Part shown: positions 12,423 through 54,142 of the stretch, piece by piece
Numbering within the stretch: the first letter of the stretch is position 1
Layout: each line of letters opens with the position of its first letter
Origin: an uncultured Clostridia bacterium
GTDB lineage: Bacteria; Bacillota; Clostridia; TANB77; CAG-508
Direction: 5' to 3'
Assembly (NCBI GenBank): GCA_934133005.1
Contig: CAKPAI010000001.1
Span: forward strand, 64,478-128,477
Length of the DNA: 64,000 nucleotides
The notes under the pieces: model-generated
Seen by the model: the letters and a program-made list of their open reading frames with translations, nothing else
Database searches by the model: none
What the model was told of the DNA's origin: nothing
Made by a program: the position numbers and the translations under genes

Positions 12423-12542
12423 GTTTTACTCTCCTTCCATATTATATAATTTTTTCTATATTATTATAGAAAAATATGTATTTAAGAGGTTCATAAAGGT
12501 TTTATAATCTCTTCAAACTACGTTTCTATTATAACACAAAAA

Positions 12543-16593: not shown

Positions 16594-17631
16594 CTATTTA
16601 TCCATTCTGTCAAATTGTGACAAGAATTTTACATCATTTGCATAAAGAAGTCTCATATCTGTAATTCCATACTTGAACATTGCAAGTCTATCAAGACCTG
16701 TTCCAAATGCAAAACCACTATAAACTTCTGGGTCATATCCATTCATTTTTAAAACATTTGGATGAACCATTCCTGAACCTAAAAGTTCAATCCAACCTGT
16801 TTGTTTACATAGATTACAACCTTTTCCACCGCATTTGAAGCAACTTACATCAACCTCAAATGATGGTTCTGTAAATGGGAAATAACTTGGTCTAAATCTA
16901 AGTTTTGTATTTTCTCCAAGCATCTTTTTCATGAATATTTCAAGAGTTCCTTTTAAATCAGCAAAAGAAATATTTTTATCAATTACTAATCCTTCTACTT
17001 GATTAAATTGATGTGAATGTGTTGCATCATCCTCTTTTCTGTATGTCTTTCCTGGGCATATAACTCTTATTGGAGTTTTTTCTTCATTTGCCATCATAGT
17101 TCTTGCTTGAACTGCAGATGTTTGAGTTCTAAGTAGATATTCAGATGTTATGTAGAAGCTATCTTGCATATCTCTTGCAGGATGGCCCTTTGGAAGATTT
17201 AATCTTTCAAAACAGTATTCGTCTGTTTCAAGTTCTGGACCTGATACAACATCATATCCCATAGACACAAATAAATCTTCAACTTCTTCAATTACTCTAT
17301 TTAGTGGATGTTTGCTTCCTCTTTTTACTTTTGTACCTGGAAGACTTATGTCAATTTTTTCATCTTCTAACTTTTTAGCAAGCTCTTTTTCTTCAATTTC
17401 TTGCTCTTTTTTGTTTATTAAAGTTTCTATTTCAGCTCTAACACTATTTACCAAGCTTCCCATTTTAGGTCTTTCTTCTGGAGATAGACTTCCCATTCCT
17501 CTCAAAATTTCAGTAAGCTCACCTTTTTTTCCTAAAATTTTTACTTTTAAATCATTTAAATCTTGTCTTTCTTGAATTTTACTTACTTTTTCTTCTGCAA
17601 GTTTTTTTATTGATTCTAACTTTTCTTTCAT
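16594..17631 (-). CDS. pheS: phenylalanine--tRNA ligase alpha subunit
   Basis: Class II aaRS motifs ([24 protein letters not shown]). Confidence 0.95.
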
Positions 17632-17639
17632 TTAAAAAC

Positions 17640-17960
17640 TTCCTTTCTATATCAAAAATAGCCGTCACTATAAGCTTTTAGACTTATAGGACGACTATAT
17701 ATTAATCGTGGTACCACCTATATTCGTTATTTCTAACCTCATTATCTTTTAACGCAAGTTTACGGCCTTTTTTACTGCTATTTCAAAAAGACGCCTCCAA
17801 AGTGAAATTATATGCAACTAATATATAAATGAATTTCAGCCTAGTTCATTTTCTCTAAAATATATTTTGCAGTTGCTTTTTTGCTTTTTCTCAGGCTTTA
17901 ACTTTAAGTATTATATACTATTTTAGCAAGGTTTGCAATATGTTTTAGAGAAAATAAAAC
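17640..17960 (-). promoter_or_regulatory. T-box riboswitch leader of the pheST operon
   Basis: Minus strand carries AATATAGGTGGTACCACG (T-box consensus AAnnnGGGTGGnACCGCG) at plus 17703-17722, followed by a terminator hairpin CGTCCTATAAG...CTTATAGTGACG and a T-run. Confidence 0.65.
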
Positions 17961-18012
17961 GACTTTATTAGATGTTTATTTTTATTCATTTGAAATCTTA
18001 AAAGTGCCAAGA

Positions 18013-19884
18013 CTACACAAGCACCGCACGGAACCCGTAGATGCAAGCGGCAGTGCCATCAAGACGGTTGAAACAGAAGAGACCAGCACCGTAGCCAGTG
18101 CCCCACCCACCACCGCGAAGGAAGAACGGACCATCCAGTGAAAGAAAGTACGAGCAATCATTATACCAGCTCGAGTTACCATTTCCTTCTGTTGATGTTT
18201 CAAATATAGCACTACCGTATATTACTCTATTTACTTTGCTACCGTTAGTAGCACTCTGCAAGCCTTTTGCATAATTGTAGTTTAATATACTTGCTGCAGT
18301 GTAATCATCTCCACTATATGTTCCAGCTTTTTCATCTGGACTATATGCATACATAGTTGCATATTTACTACTTGCATTTAATAAATTTCCTTTTTCATCT
18401 GTTACAAATGCTTTTTTATTCTTCGTTGCACTTGTATATGCATTATAACTATTTCCATATGATGTATGGTTAGATGTTGTTTTATTTGTTATATAATCAG
18501 CTGTTCTTTCCCATTCTCCTCCTGACATATCAAATATTCCATACACATTTCCTGTTGTACTTGATTTTCCTCCACCAACTTCATTCCATACTTTTATATT
18601 AGCAGATTTTCTTTTATCTGCATCATTTACTTGATCTATACTTGATATTAATACAGAGCCGTCACTTGCATCTCTACTTGATTCTACTCCTGTTATAGCA
18701 TATACTCCTAAATATGGATTTACATATTTACCATTTCCATCTTTTGTGTCATCTGCAACTGTTCCACTTGCTGTTCCACTATTCATATTTACATTATTTA
18801 TATAAATATCATCTTTATTTAAACCATATTTACTTTTTCCTAAATATGCTGCAGCTCCCCATTCACTATTTTTCATTAAATGACTATCTGTATCACTACT
18901 TAATCCATATACATTATTATTTTCATTTAGAACACTACATAATGCAAATGCTTCTTTATGGTTTACATAGTTCATAGAATATGAAGTTCCTTGAAATGAT
19001 GGATAACTTATTTTTGTTTCTGTGTTTCCATACTCTCCATCAAGCCAGTTTCTTGCTTTTATACTACCATCAAATTTTCCAGTAGTTGTTACATCTTCTC
19101 CCTTATCGTTTTTACTTGTTTGCTCTGTAACTTTACTTTCTGCATATGCAGCCCATACACTACCTTGTGTATATTTTACTGTACTTTTTATATTTGGTGT
19201 AGAATTTCCATTTGATGTTGCAAATCCAGCCTCAAATTTTGCTACCCATATTCCAGTAAGTTCACTATCCCATCCTCCATTTGCAAATCCAATTGAGCTT
19301 TCATTTGTAAATGCTGGATGAACAGTATATTCATTACTTGTGTCTGGTGTATAATCTGTCGTTGCACGAGCTGCCTTTTTTATTTTTCCTTCTGATTCGT
19401 AATAATAATCAGTTTTTCCAATTAGAAATACCACATCAAATGTTTTTGTTTCACTATTTACTTTATATGCAAATCTTGGCACCCATACCCACATACTTCC
19501 ATCTTTAGTCTGCGCATTTGCCCAATGCTTTGCATCATAATCATACCATTTACTATCTCCAATAGTAGTTGTTTTTGCATTATACATTTTTGTAGTGCTA
19601 TTTTCTTCAAAATATATTGGTGTCATTCCTGTTTTTAAACTTGGTTTATTCACCCCATTATCATATTCAGATGATACTTGTGATATTTGAGCTTCAAGTT
19701 CTTCTATTGTGCTATACTCACCCTCTGTTGCATCTTTAGTTGCTTTTGCAGCTTCTTTTGCTCTTGCTATCAATCCATTTTGTCCTACTACCAAATTTAT
19801 TGATACACCTGCTAAAATTAAAAGTACTACTATTGTAACTACCAAAGCAACTAATGTTATTCCTAAATCCCTATTTCTTTTCAT
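18013..19884 (-). CDS. prepilin-like N-terminus / FGE-sulfatase (SUMF1-like) domain surface protein, copy 1
   Basis: N-terminus MKRNRDLG|ITLVALVVTIVVLLILAGV is a short basic leader followed by a hydrophobic helix, with Glu5 replaced by Ala. The C-terminal domain carries MWVWVPRF..., GIFDMSGGEWERT, RGGGW and GFRAVLV, all FGE-sulfatase hallmarks. A long S/T/N/G/Y-rich region sits in between. Confidence 0.6.
   Translation of the reverse strand: MKRNRDLGITLVALVVTIVVLLILAGVSINLVVGQNGLIARAKEAAKATKDATEGEYSTIEELEAQISQVSSEYDNGVNKPSLKTGMTPIYFEENSTTKMYNAKTTTIGDSKWYDYDAKHWANAQTKDGSMWVWVPRFAYKVNSETKTFDVVFLIGKTDYYYESEGKIKKAARATTDYTPDTSNEYTVHPAFTNESSIGFANGGWDSELTGIWVAKFEAGFATSNGNSTPNIKSTVKYTQGSVWAAYAESKVTEQTSKNDKGEDVTTTGKFDGSIKARNWLDGEYGNTETKISYPSFQGTSYSMNYVNHKEAFALCSVLNENNNVYGLSSDTDSHLMKNSEWGAAAYLGKSKYGLNKDDIYINNVNMNSGTASGTVADDTKDGNGKYVNPYLGVYAITGVESSRDASDGSVLISSIDQVNDADKRKSANIKVWNEVGGGKSSTTGNVYGIFDMSGGEWERTADYITNKTTSNHTSYGNSYNAYTSATKNKKAFVTDEKGNLLNASSKYATMYAYSPDEKAGTYSGDDYTAASILNYNYAKGLQSATNGSKVNRVIYGSAIFETSTEGNGNSSWYNDCSYFLSLDGPFFLRGGGWGTGYGAGLFCFNRLDGTAACIYGFRAVLV
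18150..19884. repeat. ~1.7-kb segmental duplication, copy A (pairs with 27010-28737)
   Basis: Positions 18160-19295 are identical to 27021-28155 base for base. About 95% identity extends to roughly 19690 and about 80% further 5'. Confidence 0.9.
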
Positions 19885-23230: not shown

Positions 23231-23359
23231 TTTATTATCTCCTTTTGTAACATTTATTTAACAAATCATATTGTATCATAAAATTATTGGAATTGCAATT
23301 ATTTTTATGATATATAATATACTTTCCTTTTTCTTAAAGGAGAAAGGGGGTGTTCTCAG

Positions 23360-23428
23360 TTGAGAAAATTTATTAAGATATTAGTTCTTATTATCGTTCT
23401 CATTATTGTAGACGATGATAAAGACTAA
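23360..23428 (+). CDS. 22-aa hydrophobic peptide LRKFIKILVLIIVLIIVDDDKD, Fst/Ibs-like candidate type I toxin
   Basis: AAAGGAGAAAGGGGGTG followed by a TTG start. Paralogous to 24702-24770 and 46149-46217. Missing from the ORF track because it is under 60 aa and TTG-initiated. Confidence 0.45.
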   Translation: MRKFIKILVLIIVLIIVDDDKD

Positions 23429-23468
23429 AAAAAACAAACAGCATAATTGCTACACTGCTTGTTTTATT

Positions 23469-24548: not shown

Positions 24549-24701
24549 ACTAACCTCCTGCTATATTTTATGCAGACGGCTAATAAATGTTAAAATACCT
24601 AAATTTTTTTTATTTAGACTACACGTTTTGACAAACTTTGCAACATTTTTGTTATATAATATAGTTCCTTTATCCCTAAAGGAGAAAGGGGGTGTTCTCA
24701 A

Positions 24702-24770
24702 TTGAGAAGACTAATAGAGATATTAGCTCTTATTATTGTTTATATTATAATAAACAATGATAAAGACTAA
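24702..24770 (+). CDS. 22-aa hydrophobic peptide (M/L)RRLIEILALIIVYIIINNDKD, Fst/Ibs-like candidate type I toxin
   Basis: Promoter TTGACA 24628-24633 with an extended -10. SD AAAGGAGAAAGGGGGTG and a TTG start. Terminator immediately downstream. Confidence 0.5.
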   Translation: MRRLIEILALIIVYIIINNDKD

Positions 24771-26549: not shown

Positions 26550-26862
26550 GTAAAAATATAAAACTCCTTCTATTAATAAGAAAGAGTTTATATATTTTCA
26601 TAGCCTCGGACGCTCGCCCTTTTGCTACTAGAACAAGACTACTGTTTATGTGTTTATGATATAAGAACTTAGCCTATACCAAAGGAATTGGGCTTCTTTG
26701 ATACAAATCTAGATGTAATTTTCTTCTTGACTTCTAGGACACTTTTTTCATTTTGTAGAGCCTAGACAGTTCAGCATGTATAAACTCACGGTGTCGTCCG
26801 TAAACGAACACCCTCCTGAGATAGAAGTCTTCTAATCTTCTTTGTGTATCGAAGTGCAGAGA

Positions 26863-28737
26863 CTACACAAGCACCGCACGGAACCCGTTGTTGTAATTGG
26901 CATTGCCATTATTACGGTTGAAATAGAACAGACCAGCACCATTGCCATTATCCCATCTACCACCGCGAATGAAGAACGGATTATTCAGCGAAGGAAAGTA
27001 CGAGCAGTCATTATACCAGCTCGAGTTACCATTTCCTTCTGTTGATGTTTCAAATATAGCACTACCGTATATTACTCTATTTACTTTGCTACCGTTAGTA
27101 GCACTCTGCAAGCCTTTTGCATAATTGTAGTTTAATATACTTGCTGCAGTGTAATCATCTCCACTATATGTTCCAGCTTTTTCATCTGGACTATATGCAT
27201 ACATAGTTGCATATTTACTACTTGCATTTAATAAATTTCCTTTTTCATCTGTTACAAATGCTTTTTTATTCTTCGTTGCACTTGTATATGCATTATAACT
27301 ATTTCCATATGATGTATGGTTAGATGTTGTTTTATTTGTTATATAATCAGCTGTTCTTTCCCATTCTCCTCCTGACATATCAAATATTCCATACACATTT
27401 CCTGTTGTACTTGATTTTCCTCCACCAACTTCATTCCATACTTTTATATTAGCAGATTTTCTTTTATCTGCATCATTTACTTGATCTATACTTGATATTA
27501 ATACAGAGCCGTCACTTGCATCTCTACTTGATTCTACTCCTGTTATAGCATATACTCCTAAATATGGATTTACATATTTACCATTTCCATCTTTTGTGTC
27601 ATCTGCAACTGTTCCACTTGCTGTTCCACTATTCATATTTACATTATTTATATAAATATCATCTTTATTTAAACCATATTTACTTTTTCCTAAATATGCT
27701 GCAGCTCCCCATTCACTATTTTTCATTAAATGACTATCTGTATCACTACTTAATCCATATACATTATTATTTTCATTTAGAACACTACATAATGCAAATG
27801 CTTCTTTATGGTTTACATAGTTCATAGAATATGAAGTTCCTTGAAATGATGGATAACTTATTTTTGTTTCTGTGTTTCCATACTCTCCATCAAGCCAGTT
27901 TCTTGCTTTTATACTACCATCAAATTTTCCAGTAGTTGTTACATCTTCTCCCTTATCGTTTTTACTTGTTTGCTCTGTAACTTTACTTTCTGCATATGCA
28001 GCCCATACACTACCTTGTGTATATTTTACTGTACTTTTTATATTTGGTGTAGAATTTCCATTTGATGTTGCAAATCCAGCCTCAAATTTTGCTACCCATA
28101 TTCCAGTAAGTTCACTATCCCATCCTCCATTTGCAAATCCAATTGAACTTTCATTTGTAAATGCTGGATGAACTGTATATTCATTGCTTGTGTCTGGTGT
28201 ATAATCTGTTGTTGCACGAACTGCCTTTTTTATTTTTCCTTCTGATTCGTAATAATAATCAGTTTTTCCAATTAGAAATACTACATCAAATGTTTTTGTT
28301 GCACTATTTACTTTATATGCAAATCTTGGCACCCACACCCACATACTTCCATCTTTAGTCTGTGCATTTGCCCAATGTTTTGCATCATAATCATACCATT
28401 TACTATCTCCAACAGTAGTTGTTTTTGCATCATACATTTTTGTAGTACTATTTTCCTCAAAATATATTGGTGTCATTCCTGTTTTTAAACTTGGTTTATT
28501 CACTTTATCATACTCTGATGATACTTGTGATATTTGAGCCTCAAGTTCTTCTATTGTACTATACTCACCTGCTGCCGCGTCTTTAGTTGCCTTTGCAGAC
28601 TCCTTTGCTCTTGCAATAATTCCATTATCACCAACAAGTGTGTTAATTGTTACTCCTGCTAAAATTAGCAATACAATTATTGTTACAACTAATGCTACTA
28701 ACGTAATACCTGCATTACTTCTAATTTTCTTTTTCAT
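26863..28737 (-). CDS. prepilin-like N-terminus / FGE-sulfatase domain surface protein, copy 2
   Basis: MKKKIRSNAG|ITLVALVVTIIVLLILAGV. The central ~1.1 kb is identical to copy 1. The C-terminal cassette differs and reads RGGRWDNGNGAGLFYFNRNNGNANYNNGFRAVLV. Confidence 0.6.
   Translation of the reverse strand: MKKKIRSNAGITLVALVVTIIVLLILAGVTINTLVGDNGIIARAKESAKATKDAAAGEYSTIEELEAQISQVSSEYDKVNKPSLKTGMTPIYFEENSTTKMYDAKTTTVGDSKWYDYDAKHWANAQTKDGSMWVWVPRFAYKVNSATKTFDVVFLIGKTDYYYESEGKIKKAVRATTDYTPDTSNEYTVHPAFTNESSIGFANGGWDSELTGIWVAKFEAGFATSNGNSTPNIKSTVKYTQGSVWAAYAESKVTEQTSKNDKGEDVTTTGKFDGSIKARNWLDGEYGNTETKISYPSFQGTSYSMNYVNHKEAFALCSVLNENNNVYGLSSDTDSHLMKNSEWGAAAYLGKSKYGLNKDDIYINNVNMNSGTASGTVADDTKDGNGKYVNPYLGVYAITGVESSRDASDGSVLISSIDQVNDADKRKSANIKVWNEVGGGKSSTTGNVYGIFDMSGGEWERTADYITNKTTSNHTSYGNSYNAYTSATKNKKAFVTDEKGNLLNASSKYATMYAYSPDEKAGTYSGDDYTAASILNYNYAKGLQSATNGSKVNRVIYGSAIFETSTEGNGNSSWYNDCSYFPSLNNPFFIRGGRWDNGNGAGLFYFNRNNGNANYNNGFRAVLV
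27010..28737. repeat. ~1.7-kb segmental duplication, copy B (pairs with 18150-19884)
   Basis: See copy A. The flanks outside the CDS are unrelated. Confidence 0.9.
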
Positions 28738-46148: not shown

Positions 46149-46217
46149 TTTGAAAAAGCTTATAAAAGTTCTAGTACTTATCATCCTTTATATGATTATA
46201 AACGATGACAAAGACTA
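46149..46217 (+). CDS. 22-aa hydrophobic peptide (M/L)KKLIKVLVLIILYMIINDDKD, Fst/Ibs-like candidate type I toxin
   Basis: AAAGGAGAAAGGAGGTG followed by a TTG start. Third paralog of this module. Confidence 0.5.
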
Positions 46218-46219
46218 AA

Positions 46220-46254
46220 GTAAAATACTAGGGATGGCAGTCCCTAGTATTTTT
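46220..46254. terminator. bidirectional rho-independent terminator
   Basis: ACTAGGGATGGCAGTCCCTAGT followed by TTTTTT, with an A-run upstream. Confidence 0.65.
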
Positions 46255-51446: not shown

Positions 51447-52770
51447 TTATTTTAAAAATAATGTTGCTCGAAAACCAGTATCATTATTTATTATTTGAAT
51501 ATATGTTGCATCCCATCTATTTCCTGCTGCTCCCAAAAATAAGCCAGAACTTCCTCCTCTAAATATTACATTATCATCAACTCCAATATTTAGTTCAGTT
51601 GTATATTCTACTACATTTCCTCCCATATCAAATATATTACTTTTAGCTCCTGTTTGCCCTGTGAGTAATTTCTTTCCTACTCCAGCTTCCTTTATTACAT
51701 ATCCATTACTATCCACCACTTGTTGATTAATCCAATTTTCATTGAATCCATTTATTGACGTTGCATAATTTGTCGCCCCATTGTTCATTATAAAATTTAT
51801 TGCTGTATCCCATGCATAACTTGAGCAAAGATATGTTGTTGCACTAGTTCCGTCTCCGATTTCTTTTGACAAGGAATATGCAGAAGACCATGTTTGCTTG
51901 CTACATACTTCTTTATTACTCTTAATAACTACTTTTTCATCTTCAACACCAACTTCATATCTTCCTATATAGTAACCTCCATATTTCTTTACACTTGCAA
52001 ACTCGCTGTTTATTTGTTTTACTATCTCTTTTGATACTTCTTCATTTATTCCATTATCTGTATCTGTTTTTAAATATGTTACATTACTATCTGTTAGTGT
52101 TAATTCGTCCTTCCACGCTTCTGTTTCATTATCGTTTTCAACATTCCATCTTGTTCTTTGATACTGTAATTTATCACTTCCATCCATTGCACATGGTATC
52201 CATACATATTCATTTCCAGTCGAATCTTCTTTTATTACTAGTCCCTTATCTACTAAGTTTTCTCCTTCTACTGTTGATACTGTAAAGCCTGTTGGTATTG
52301 GTGCTTTTTTACCATTTACATCTGTATAAACTGTACAATCTGTTGTTTCATTTTCACTAAAATCTTGACTACATATTTCTGATAATTTTATTTCATAATT
52401 TCCATACTCGGCTTTTGTTTTCAAAACTGTATCTGATTTCAAGTAATAACTTTCTGGCACATTTTCAAAATATCTATCTAATACATCCTTTAAGTTTGTA
52501 TTTAGGAATTCCATAGTTTTTACTTTCGTTTGCTCTGCTACAATTTCTGTTTGTACTTCATCTATTAAACTTGCTAACGTTGTATTCTTCGCTGCCTCTT
52601 TCGCTCTATTTATTAGTCCATTTTGTCCTACTACCAAATTTATTGTTACTCCTGCTAAAATTAAAAGCACTACTATCGTTACCACTAAAGCAACTAACGT
52701 TATACCGTGATTTTCTTTAAGATATCGGTGTGTGTGTGTGTGTGTGTGTGTACAGCCTCAAGGCTTTCAT
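51447..52770 (-). CDS. prepilin-like/FGE-domain paralog, currently out of frame with both upstream ATGs (track ORF 51447-52685 begins with GTG inside the hydrophobic helix)
   Basis: Body frame reads ...(TH)4 RYLKENHG|ITLVALVVTIVVLLILAGV... with FGE motifs NIFDMGGNVVEYT, RGGSSG and GFRATLFLK. ATG 52768-52770 (MKALRLY-) is at +1 relative to the body and ATG 52778-52780 (MKNYESLEAV-) at -1. The two are separated from the body by (GT)12. Confidence 0.5.
52728..52751. repeat. (GT)12 / (AC)12 dinucleotide microsatellite in the 5' region of the pilin-like gene
   Basis: Read directly from the sequence. It is the only long dinucleotide SSR in the window. Confidence 0.95.
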
Positions 52771-52894: not shown

Positions 52895-54142
52895 TTATTT
52901 CCATAGTATCCTCCGACGTAATACAATTGGATCTAATATCCCTGGATTTATCTCTGTTGTAAATTCTATTATATTTCCACCCATATCAAAAATATTGCTT
53001 TTAGCTGTCGTTTTTCCTGTTAGTAACCTTTCATTGTCTTCTTCTGATTTAATTATAATTCCATTATTGTTCGTTATACTCTTATTGCTCCAATTTTCAT
53101 TAAATCCATCTATTGACTTTGCGTAATTCTTTGTTCCATTATTCATTATAAAGTTTACTGCTGTATCCCACGCATAGCTTGAACATAAATACGTTGTTGC
53201 ACCGGTTCCTGCTCCTATTCCTTTTGCTAAATTATAAGCTTCTGTCCACCTTGTTGTATTTCCATTTACTGTTCCTGCATATGGTTCTTTATTTGCTTGC
53301 ACTACTGCCTTGTAATTTTCTCCTATACCTGTTTCATATCTTCCTATATAGTAACCTCCATATTTCTTTACACTTGTAAACTCGCTGTTTATTTGATTTA
53401 CTATCTCTTTTGATACTTCTTCATTTATTCCATTATCTGTTTCTGTTTTTAAATATGTTACATTGCTATCTGTTAGTGTTAATTCATCTTTCCATGATTC
53501 TGTTCCATTATCCGTTTCAACACCCCATCTTGTTCTTTGATACTGTAATTTATCGCTTCCATCCATTGAGCATGGTATCCATACATATTCATTTCCAGTC
53601 GAATCTTCTCTTATTACTAGACCTTTATCAACTAAGTTCTCTCCTTCTACTGTTGACACGGTAAAGCCTGTTGGCACTGGTGCTTTATTTCCATTTCTAT
53701 CTGTATATGTTGTACAATCTGTTGTTTCATTTTCACTAAAATCTTGACTACATATTTCTGATAATTTTATTTCATAATTTCCATACTCGGCTTTTGTTTT
53801 CAAAACTGTATCTGATTTCAAGTAATAACTTTCTGGCACATTTTCAAAATATCTATCTAATACATCCTTTAAGTTTGTATTTAGGAATTCCATAGTTTTT
53901 ACTTTCGTTTGCTCTGCTACAATTTCTGTTTGTACTTCATCTATTAAACTTGCTAACGTTGTATTCTTCGCTGCTTCTTTCGCTCTATTTATTAGTCCAT
54001 TTTGTCCTACCACTAAATTTATTGATACTCCTGCTAAAATTAAAAGTACAACAATTGTTACAACAAGCGCAACTAACGTTATACCTGAATTTTTCTTATT
54101 CATCTCACTATATATAGTTTTTATTCTATTTGCTTCTCTCAT
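52895..54142 (-). CDS. prepilin-like/FGE-domain paralog with a frameshifted, GC-rich C-terminal end
   Basis: MREANRIKTIYSEMNKKNSG|ITLVALVV… About 85% identical to 51447-52685. The ORF ends at …ILDPIVLRRRILWK*, but the other two frames over 52815-52900 encode …VGGYYGNKGPAR… and …RYGFRVTLFLK*, the expected FGE C-terminus. Confidence 0.55.
   Translation of the reverse strand: MREANRIKTIYSEMNKKNSGITLVALVVTIVVLLILAGVSINLVVGQNGLINRAKEAAKNTTLASLIDEVQTEIVAEQTKVKTMEFLNTNLKDVLDRYFENVPESYYLKSDTVLKTKAEYGNYEIKLSEICSQDFSENETTDCTTYTDRNGNKAPVPTGFTVSTVEGENLVDKGLVIREDSTGNEYVWIPCSMDGSDKLQYQRTRWGVETDNGTESWKDELTLTDSNVTYLKTETDNGINEEVSKEIVNQINSEFTSVKKYGGYYIGRYETGIGENYKAVVQANKEPYAGTVNGNTTRWTEAYNLAKGIGAGTGATTYLCSSYAWDTAVNFIMNNGTKNYAKSIDGFNENWSNKSITNNNGIIIKSEEDNERLLTGKTTAKSNIFDMGGNIIEFTTEINPGILDPIVLRRRILWK

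Follow-up and report, generated by a model that had tools for sequence, protein, structure and literature searches.

Genes and their shared core

How do two genes in the chromosome of an uncultured gut bacterium come to be identical base for base through a long core and end in quite different peptides? We addressed this question in a 64,000-nt stretch of DNA (the window; positions 64,478 to 128,477 of contig CAKPAI010000001.1, assembly GCA_934133005.1). The host is an uncultured spore-forming Clostridia bacterium with 29% G+C, and the window is part of a contig of 305,844 nt that SPAdes assembled from a Hadza gut metagenome. An initial annotation, made from the sequence alone, had read the gene pair as a duplicated "pilin/FGE" gene with swapped terminal cassettes. 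In our analysis, both open reading frames (ORFs) are very probably paralogous targets of a diversity-generating retroelement (DGR), with copy 1 carrying a mutated variable repeat (VR) and copy 2 fused to the unmutated template repeat (TR). DGRs that serve several paralogous targets are already known as a class; the host family has no annotation.

The two ORFs and their common core are as follows.

18013..19884, minus strand: copy 1, a predicted DGR variable-protein paralog of 623 aa with a hydrophobic, pilin-like N-terminal anchor and a C-terminal RGG...GFRAVLV scaffold
26863..28737, minus strand: copy 2, a paralog of 624 aa whose final 48 codons are predicted to be encoded by the template repeat
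27008..28146, minus strand: exact core of copy 2, 1139 nt, the probable conversion or replacement tract, bounded on its 3' side by position 1 of the VR/TR
18158..19296, minus strand: partner of the exact core in copy 1, 1139 nt

The core, the alignment, and the mismatch profile were all computed on the 64-kb window. Copies 1 and 2 are offset by 8850 nt and are 95.3% identical over 1863 nt, with one gap and 84 mismatches (blastn); the longest exact stretch is 1139 nt (18158-19296 = 27008-28146). Under a uniform rate of 84 mismatches in 1863 nt, a mismatch-free run of this length would have a chance of about e^-52. On the 5' side, mismatches per 150 alignment columns (138-150 bases compared) run 42, 11, 7, 5, 1, and then 0, and on the 3' side identity ends sharply 146 nt (~48 codons) ahead of the stop codon. 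Unrelated housekeeping genes surround the copies (pheST and its T-box leader, RNase R, secG, an amidase, a metallo-beta-lactamase [MBL] protein, DUF3006, and DHH), and a third copy of the repeat is absent from the 64-kb window, which holds just copies 1 and 2.

The initial annotation had thus described the layout well: more than 1.1 kb of base-for-base identity, copies 8.8 kb apart with unrelated flanks, ~80% identity over the N-terminal ~85 codons (which fits the mismatch profile), and an abrupt stop of identity ~45 codons before the stop codon. The two C-terminal peptides that it quoted are correct on translation. Its first interval (18160-19295) was right, and its second (27021-28155) was ~10 nt off.

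A template repeat at the end of copy 2

The ends of the two genes differ in a specific way. Over the last 170 nt of the coding strand, 19 of the 29 differences are an A in copy 2 against a G, C, or T in copy 1, and the end of copy 2 is rich in AAT/AAC codons and hence in Asn, a pattern characteristic of a DGR. We compared the contig of the window (L001) with four conspecific loci (L016, L017, L020, and L021) and with loci of a sister species (L005 and L013). L016 is the same locus of the same species from another Hadza individual and is six single-nucleotide polymorphisms (SNPs) away from the window over 21.5 kb. In its copy 2, a diversified VR is followed by a 152-nt spacer (VR-type flank including a hairpin) and then by a free-standing 157-nt TR. 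The TR starts 309 nt downstream of the VR start in the intact strains L016, L021, and L020, and every mismatch between TR and VR falls on a TR adenine (17/17 in L016, 17/17 in L021, and 11/11 in L020 when compared with its own TR).

The window is equal to L016 minus an exact 309-nt gap, with both sides 100% identical, and the fused junction reads ...GGTATAATG joined to ACTGCTCG...CTGAATAAT. Because this gap joins the gene body to the TR, we take the Asn-rich C-terminal end of copy 2 (26852-27008) to be the DGR template itself, whether the fusion is real or a product of assembly. Two features define the junction.

26852..27008, minus strand: predicted template repeat of 157 nt with 32 adenines and AAT/AAC codons, joined in frame to copy 2
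26986..27008, minus strand: 23-nt stretch ACTGCTCGTACTTTCCTTCGCTG, the common 5' end of VR and TR and the 309-nt deletion junction (L016-L001 alignment)

The window TR is 100% identical to the free-standing TRs of L016 and L021 and is 2 positions off the L020 TR allele. VR and TR agree over 23 nt at their 5' ends and over 36 nt or more at their 3' ends; they are alike through ...GTGTAGTCTCTGCACTT and then part (TGAAAATTCC versus CGATACACAAAG) at a putative boundary of the mutagenic-homing initiation (IMH/IMH*) type. Copy 1 carries the VR-type flank, unlike copy 2, which carries the TR-type flank. The copy 2 locus is syntenic with the target gene of sister-species locus L005, and window positions 27008-26588 match the L005 TR and 260 nt of its downstream flank with 87% identity over 425 nt. 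The fused form was also found in L017, with a single A-to-T change near the 5' end, and P0135, from another assembly, is a protein identical to copy 2 with the same naive end. In this small sample, the three intact alleles examined (L016, L020, and L021) all have diversified VRs, and both fused loci examined (window and L017) are naive or one adenine away.

A variable repeat at the end of copy 1

The corresponding end of copy 1 is the following feature.

18002..18158, minus strand: candidate variable repeat of copy 1, a mutagenised template copy, probably old or from another TR allele

Of the 157 nt of this VR, 27 mismatch the window TR: 19 of these fall on the 32 template adenines and the remaining 8 on the 125 non-adenine bases (Fisher p = 2.6e-10). 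It therefore appears to be a mutagenised copy of the window template type, though not a clean one. One of the non-adenine differences (position 59, C) equals the L020 TR allele, and the remaining ones suggest that the copy 1 VR is old and no longer refreshed. The peptide it encodes recurs unchanged in many assemblies. The VR-type 3' flank survives for ~25 nt. Intact alleles have a strong hairpin ~115 nt beyond the VR; no such hairpin follows copy 1. A T-box leader upstream of pheS (17684-17901, minus strand; Rfam 94.7 bits) starts ~110 nt past the copy 1 stop codon, and therefore no room is left there for a hairpin/spacer/TR module.

At the population level, 37 proteins that are at least 89% identical to the window genes have 21 distinct C-terminal tails. 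The 19 codons with an A at position 1 or 2 (16 of them varying) have a mean of 5.3 residue types, against 1.2 for the other 30 codons.

These patterns bear on the model first proposed for the pair, in which N- and C-terminal cassettes are exchanged by ongoing gene conversion, as in antigenic variation of the pilE/pilS type. Exchange between paralogs does happen in the gene body, and clusters of core SNPs vary among strains. In addition, one protein (P0126; NCBI+ENA, contig 440895) combines the copy-2 N-terminus with the exact copy-1 VR, as either a paralog recombinant or a chimeric assembly through the identical core. However, the C-terminal differences lie on template adenines alone in four TR-VR pairs (those of L016, L021, and L020 and a further 16/16 in L005), the 21 tails come with no reservoir of alternative cassettes in a window of just two copies, and the non-coding TR, together with its flank, is collinear with the end of copy 2. 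For the C-terminal ends, cassette exchange is refuted by the adenine specificity, and as an account of the whole pair it is hardly credible. What had been called swapped cassettes would be a VR in copy 1 and a fused TR in copy 2, with their differences concentrated on template adenines.

Proposed mechanism

We propose that each paralog is a membrane-anchored protein whose last ~33 residues would form a variable, ligand-binding tip. An intact locus would have the order of copy-2 gene with VR, hairpin/spacer, 157-nt TR, and an RT-14-like RNA. The DGR reverse transcriptase (RT) would copy the TR RNA and misread adenines, and the resulting complementary DNA (cDNA) would overwrite the VR. In the window, the 309 nt from VR start to TR start are gone; copy 2 therefore would read straight into the TR and encode an unmutated, Asn-rich, "naive" tip. 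Copy 1 would have retained a mutagenised VR. The naive TR end on copy 2 and the mutagenised VR on copy 1 would together account for the two "cassettes." The fusion itself presumably arose by recombination between VR and TR, or it could instead reflect assembly collapse. The fused copy 2 would no longer be able to receive cDNA because of its TR-type 3' flank.

A structured RNA downstream of the template

The sequence between the TR and the DUF3006 gene contains two predicted RNA features.

26599..26737, minus strand: RT-14-like structured RNA, a candidate DGR RNA "spacer" or priming element 3' of the TR
26561..26589, minus strand: terminator-like hairpin at the end of the putative TR-RNA transcript, just ahead of the DUF3006 promoter

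The window element matched the full Rfam RT-14 model (RF02921, positions 1-144) at 35.9 bits, below the gathering score of 48.1 (E = 0.0035), and its homolog in L009 scored 52.8 bits. Within the 310-nt gap between TR and DUF3006, the element is 75-88% conserved in ten loci, in species whose target proteins are ~45-60% identical, and RNAalifold folded the 10-locus alignment into 29 pairs, 13 of them with compensatory changes. The hairpin was found by a consensus scan of the identical L016 sequence (12458-12486), and its coordinates were mapped through L001. A consensus scan for a TR promoter in the VR-TR spacer was uninformative. No RT gene accompanies the RT-14-like element in the window or in L005.

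Weinberg et al. reported that the RT-10 motif lies between TR and brt of phage BPP-1, and speculated on a DGR role for other RT motifs (PMC5737381). The loci analyzed here show a DGR association for RT-14, a role that had merely been speculated for such motifs. In the sister species, a PD-(D/E)XK (PDDEXK_2) transposase gene sits between the TR/RT-14 module and DUF3006 (L005 11129-12142; L013 3-548); it is absent from the window species.

Related loci with a reverse transcriptase

In L003, which encodes a relative with 46% identity, the target gene is followed by a 157-nt TR with 12 of 13 mismatches at TR adenines, and then on the opposite strand by genes for RVT_1, bAvd, and a MutS_I-domain protein. 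The last of these, a 144-aa ORF (L003 13796-14230) directly after Avd in what is a canonical DGR for the family, matches the "MSL" accessory class (Wu et al. 2018).

A scan of GTDB genomes with the naive peptide gave nine loci. All seven that have both repeats entire place a 157-nt TR 150-200 nt past the target stop codon, and in these seven every TR-VR mismatch except one is at a TR adenine. An ORF of ~375 aa with a YxDD motif lies on the opposite strand in eight of the nine loci; RVT_1 was confirmed in L003/L006 and L008, in each case followed by bAvd. Searches with the VR/TR A-to-N DNA pattern found nothing in viral or GTDB genome contigs and one 1.7-kb contig in JGI metagenomes. The window species is outside the GTDB representatives.

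Replacement of the copy 2 body

The identical core has a separate history. In the sister species, the gene at the copy-1 position (L013) and the gene at the copy-2 position (L005) are ~55-86% identical to each other. In the window, the copy 2 body (~nt 166-1732) matches the sister copy 1 with 90-100% identity and the sister copy 2 with 55-86%, and its downstream flank is orthologous to the copy-2 locus despite the copy-1-type body. We therefore conclude from these alignments that copy-1-type sequence replaced the copy 2 body, probably by gene conversion, in an event separate from the fusion. Across the 1139 nt of the core there are 0 differences, compared with a divergence of 5-29% on the 5' side and of 6.4% at VR sites other than adenines. 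The conversion tract ends exactly at VR/TR position 1, where the density of mismatches would block further heteroduplex. Gene conversion between paralogs, as initially suggested, thus stands for the core, by the sister-species comparison, and fails for the adenine-specific C-terminal ends. That the core is identical base for base is a weaker claim; concerted change and a collapsed repeat carrying one paralog's alleles would each fit.

Differences between strains cluster inside the common core (27620-27670 and 18770-18820 in the window, or ~1072-1116 along the gene; in L017, 967-1314 along the gene), and tens of kilobases flanking the core are identical between strains. A mosaic drawn from further paralogs or a mixed assembly of both copies is possible. 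The sister species also has a third, more divergent paralog of 589 aa between the amidase and secG genes (L013 3851-5620; L005 ~16846-18600). The same site in the window (23231-23468) is just 238 nt long and holds one of the mini-peptide elements described below.

Assembly, activity, and the location of the reverse transcriptase

Several observations weigh against a DGR with paralogous targets as we describe it. First, no RT or Avd gene, intact or remnant, was found in the 64-kb window, in 10 kb to its left, or in ~8.5 kb to its right; a homolog search turned up more than 7000 RTs and no contig assignable to the window species. Second, the copy 1 VR may no longer be an active target, given its 8 non-adenine differences and its identity in many assemblies. 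Third, the SNPs that separate the window from L016 are the same three in both paralogs (gene positions ~1072, ~1074, and ~1116), with none elsewhere in the 21.5 kb. Finally, all sequences are short-read metagenome assemblies, so both the fusion and the exact identity of the core may be assembler products.

The last two points raise the rival explanation that the fusion is an assembly artefact, as the initial annotation had aptly warned. The real copy 2 would then have VR, spacer, and TR, and the assembler would have jumped to the TR through common sequence where the VR was heterogeneous or near-naive; the core identity would be a collapsed consensus. The contigs were built from short reads with SPAdes or MEGAHIT, intact and fused forms come from the same pipelines, and an assembler can create exact identity in a 1.1-kb repeat. 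VR and TR share sequence at both ends, as described above, and an active DGR makes for a heterogeneous VR population. In L017, the lone adenine change close to the 5' end looks as if a sparsely mutated VR had been merged with the TR, and 13 of the 14 differences between L017 and the window cluster in the core. The two Hadza strains differ by the paired SNPs alone.

On the other side, three or more assemblies, from different studies, encode the same naive protein, and heavily diversified VRs have no 55-mer in common with the TR, so that a collapse needs special circumstances. A direct repeat of two copies on one contig leaves the observed order of flanks as the only Eulerian path, which means that both copies exist. 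The replacement of the copy 2 body (25% versus 5% divergence from the sister species) is also beyond what bubble-popping creates. We give an artefactual fusion slightly less than an even chance. Even so, the DGR reading of the "cassette" would still stand.

The absence of a nearby RT bears on a second alternative, that of a relic: the RT would have been lost, the TR, RNA, and VRs would be remnants in decay, and strain differences in the VR would date from the past. The lack of RT and Avd in the ~82 kb examined and the fixed non-adenine changes of the copy 1 VR speak for it. A VR-TR fusion is the decay expected of a dead element, and more than half of surveyed candidate DGRs are degenerate (PMC5758913). 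Against this, the strains are 0-3 SNPs per 10 kb apart, and their copy-2 VRs differ at 11-17 adenine sites and at zero non-adenine sites; diversification is therefore much faster than background mutation. Between sister species, the TR and RNA keep 87% identity, compared with ~55-86% for the gene at the same position (which is also affected by paralog replacement) and 80-96% for neighbouring genes. Taken together, we find a relic improbable.

Returning to an active DGR with paralogous targets, the RT would act in trans from elsewhere in the genome of the window species. We searched the window, L016, and L005 for YxDD ORFs and with family RTs by tblastn, and found no RT in L016 or within 10 kb in the syntenic locus of L005; nor did either locus show an Avd gene or a degraded remnant of RT or Avd. 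A trans-acting RT is suggested because L005 has adenine-only mismatches without an RT nearby and because near-identical conspecific strains differ at so many adenine sites. DGR components that work in trans on remote targets are documented (PMC5758913).

Protein family and fold

The window genes have more than 6190 homologs, all in uncultured Clostridia and without a precomputed Pfam domain. An NCBIfam search with the target protein gave no match. The label "pilin/FGE" in the initial annotation has sub-threshold support on both counts. The N-terminal hydrophobic helix resembles a prepilin leader, with N_methyl (PF07963) at 14 bits against a cut-off of 21.2 (E = 0.039); PDB pilins match this helix alone (E = 0.036-0.35), and the conserved Glu5 of type IV pilins is lacking, with Ala in its place in G-ITLVA. 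Pfam FGE-sulfatase scored 20.8 bits, under its cut-off of 23.3. We rejected the TANB77 "pilin-like proteins" (PMC11680825) as relatives, as these are small pilins of 143-236 aa from an unrelated family.

The best PDB profile match was TaqVP (5VF4), which is not significant (E = 0.68) and aligns VR on VR. Three collinear motifs are in common with variable proteins of the FGE-type C-type lectin (CLec) fold: hLMkNsEWgavaYL, GtiYGiyDlsGG.WE, and RGG.w..g..AGlf, the third of which aligns with the VR of TaqVP. Structure models of the target protein yielded no fold match. Reported cellular DGR targets combine a membrane anchor with a C-terminal VR (PMC8144416), and the architecture of the window proteins agrees.

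Two sets of paralogs were observed besides copies 1 and 2. In a related Clostridia genome (L002 7977-21734; ENA ERZ28616472 scaffold_118), at least eight paralogs from the family of the window genes, 576-577 aa each, stand head to tail with ~295-nt spacers, and no RT was found within the 21.7 kb fetched. In the window itself, a second tandem pair on the minus strand (51447-52685 and 52895-54142; 412 and 415 aa) shares the pilin-like helix at the N-terminus and carries a C-terminal scaffold of FGE-like type (SNIFDMGGN...RGGSS...GFRATL). Its 5' halves are 94% identical, and the second gene stops early (...LRRRILWK*), possibly by frameshift. We checked this pair for a TR/VR signature and saw none.

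Comparison with known systems

The arrangement resembles the DGR of Treponema denticola, with TvpA and remote targets, and further cellular DGRs whose targets are not adjacent (Wu et al. 2018, PMC5758913), where one template serves several paralogous targets scattered over the chromosome, the VR is at the extreme C-terminus, targets are membrane anchored, and components work in trans. It differs from these in that the TR, which adjoins the RT in the cases described, lies here with its RNA beside a target gene and with no RT or Avd nearby, and in that one paralog is fused to the TR and the VR of the other has non-adenine drift.

With the DGR of Bordetella phage BPP-1 (Mtd, avd-TR-brt), the locus shares an adenine-specific flow of information from TR to VR, a TR with AAY codons, a structured RNA that follows the TR immediately on its 3' side (RT-10 between TR and brt in BPP-1, RT-14-like here; PMC5737381), and 3' flanks of VR and TR that diverge straight after the repeat, as with IMH/IMH*. 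Unlike in BPP-1, the host here is cellular, related loci have an RT gene convergent with the TR, the window locus has none, and the target, at 620 aa and with a membrane helix at its N-terminus, is not a tail fibre. The FGE-subtype CLec variable proteins TaqVP, TvpA, and Mtd likewise have three collinear motifs and a C-terminal VR; unlike them, the window protein has large insertions, and its similarity, best to TaqVP, is below significance.

DGRs acting on type V pilus tip adhesins of Bacteroides (bioRxiv 10.1101/2024.11.15.621889) are also chromosomal, in gut commensals, with adhesin-like surface proteins and between-strain VR differences in human metagenomes. The phylum, protein family, and anchoring are different, with a type IV-pilin-like N-terminal helix without Glu5 in our case. 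As in Neisseria pilE/pilS gene conversion, recombination between paralogs would homogenise or replace part of a surface-protein gene, here the copy 2 body; unlike in Neisseria, variation of the tip would come from reverse transcription with adenine mutagenesis and not from silent cassettes.

A repeated mini-gene in the window

Three copies of a 130-300-nt element lie on the plus strand (~23350-23420, ~24692-24760, and ~46150-46220). Each carries a TTGCAA...TATAAT resembling a promoter, a strong Shine-Dalgarno sequence (AAAGGAGAAAGGGGGTG), and the code for a hydrophobic peptide of 22 aa with a TTG start. The mini-peptides are LRKFIKILVLIIVLIIVDDDKD, LRRLIEILALIIVYIIINNDKD, and a third, LKKLIKVLVLIILYMIINDDKD, read by eye from the alignment. 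A clear terminator hairpin follows two of the three copies, and the layout is like that of a type I toxin mini-gene.

Meaning for the clade and the protein family

Three features of this system are less usual: a TR-RNA module apart from the RT, one allele with the template fused to the target, and recent conversion between paralogs. A more speculative reading, to which we assign a low probability, is that the clade has uncoupled template and priming RNA from the RT. A stand-alone module of TR and RT-14 beside the target would then be serviced in trans, and in the window strain this module would be the coding 3' end of the target, so that the naive protein would be expressed from the template and its transcript could still donate cDNA to the other paralog.

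For the gene pair, a recombination story is replaced by a precise mechanism, DGR mutagenic retrohoming. The locus is also an example of a DGR that appears without a VR, whether through real VR-TR recombination or through assembler collapse, and this matters for calls of DGR activity from metagenome assemblies. More broadly, the window genes identify a very large family of DGR targets that has no annotation, in gut Clostridia that are uncultured, with more than 6000 proteins that have no Pfam domain and with up to at least eight paralogs in tandem.

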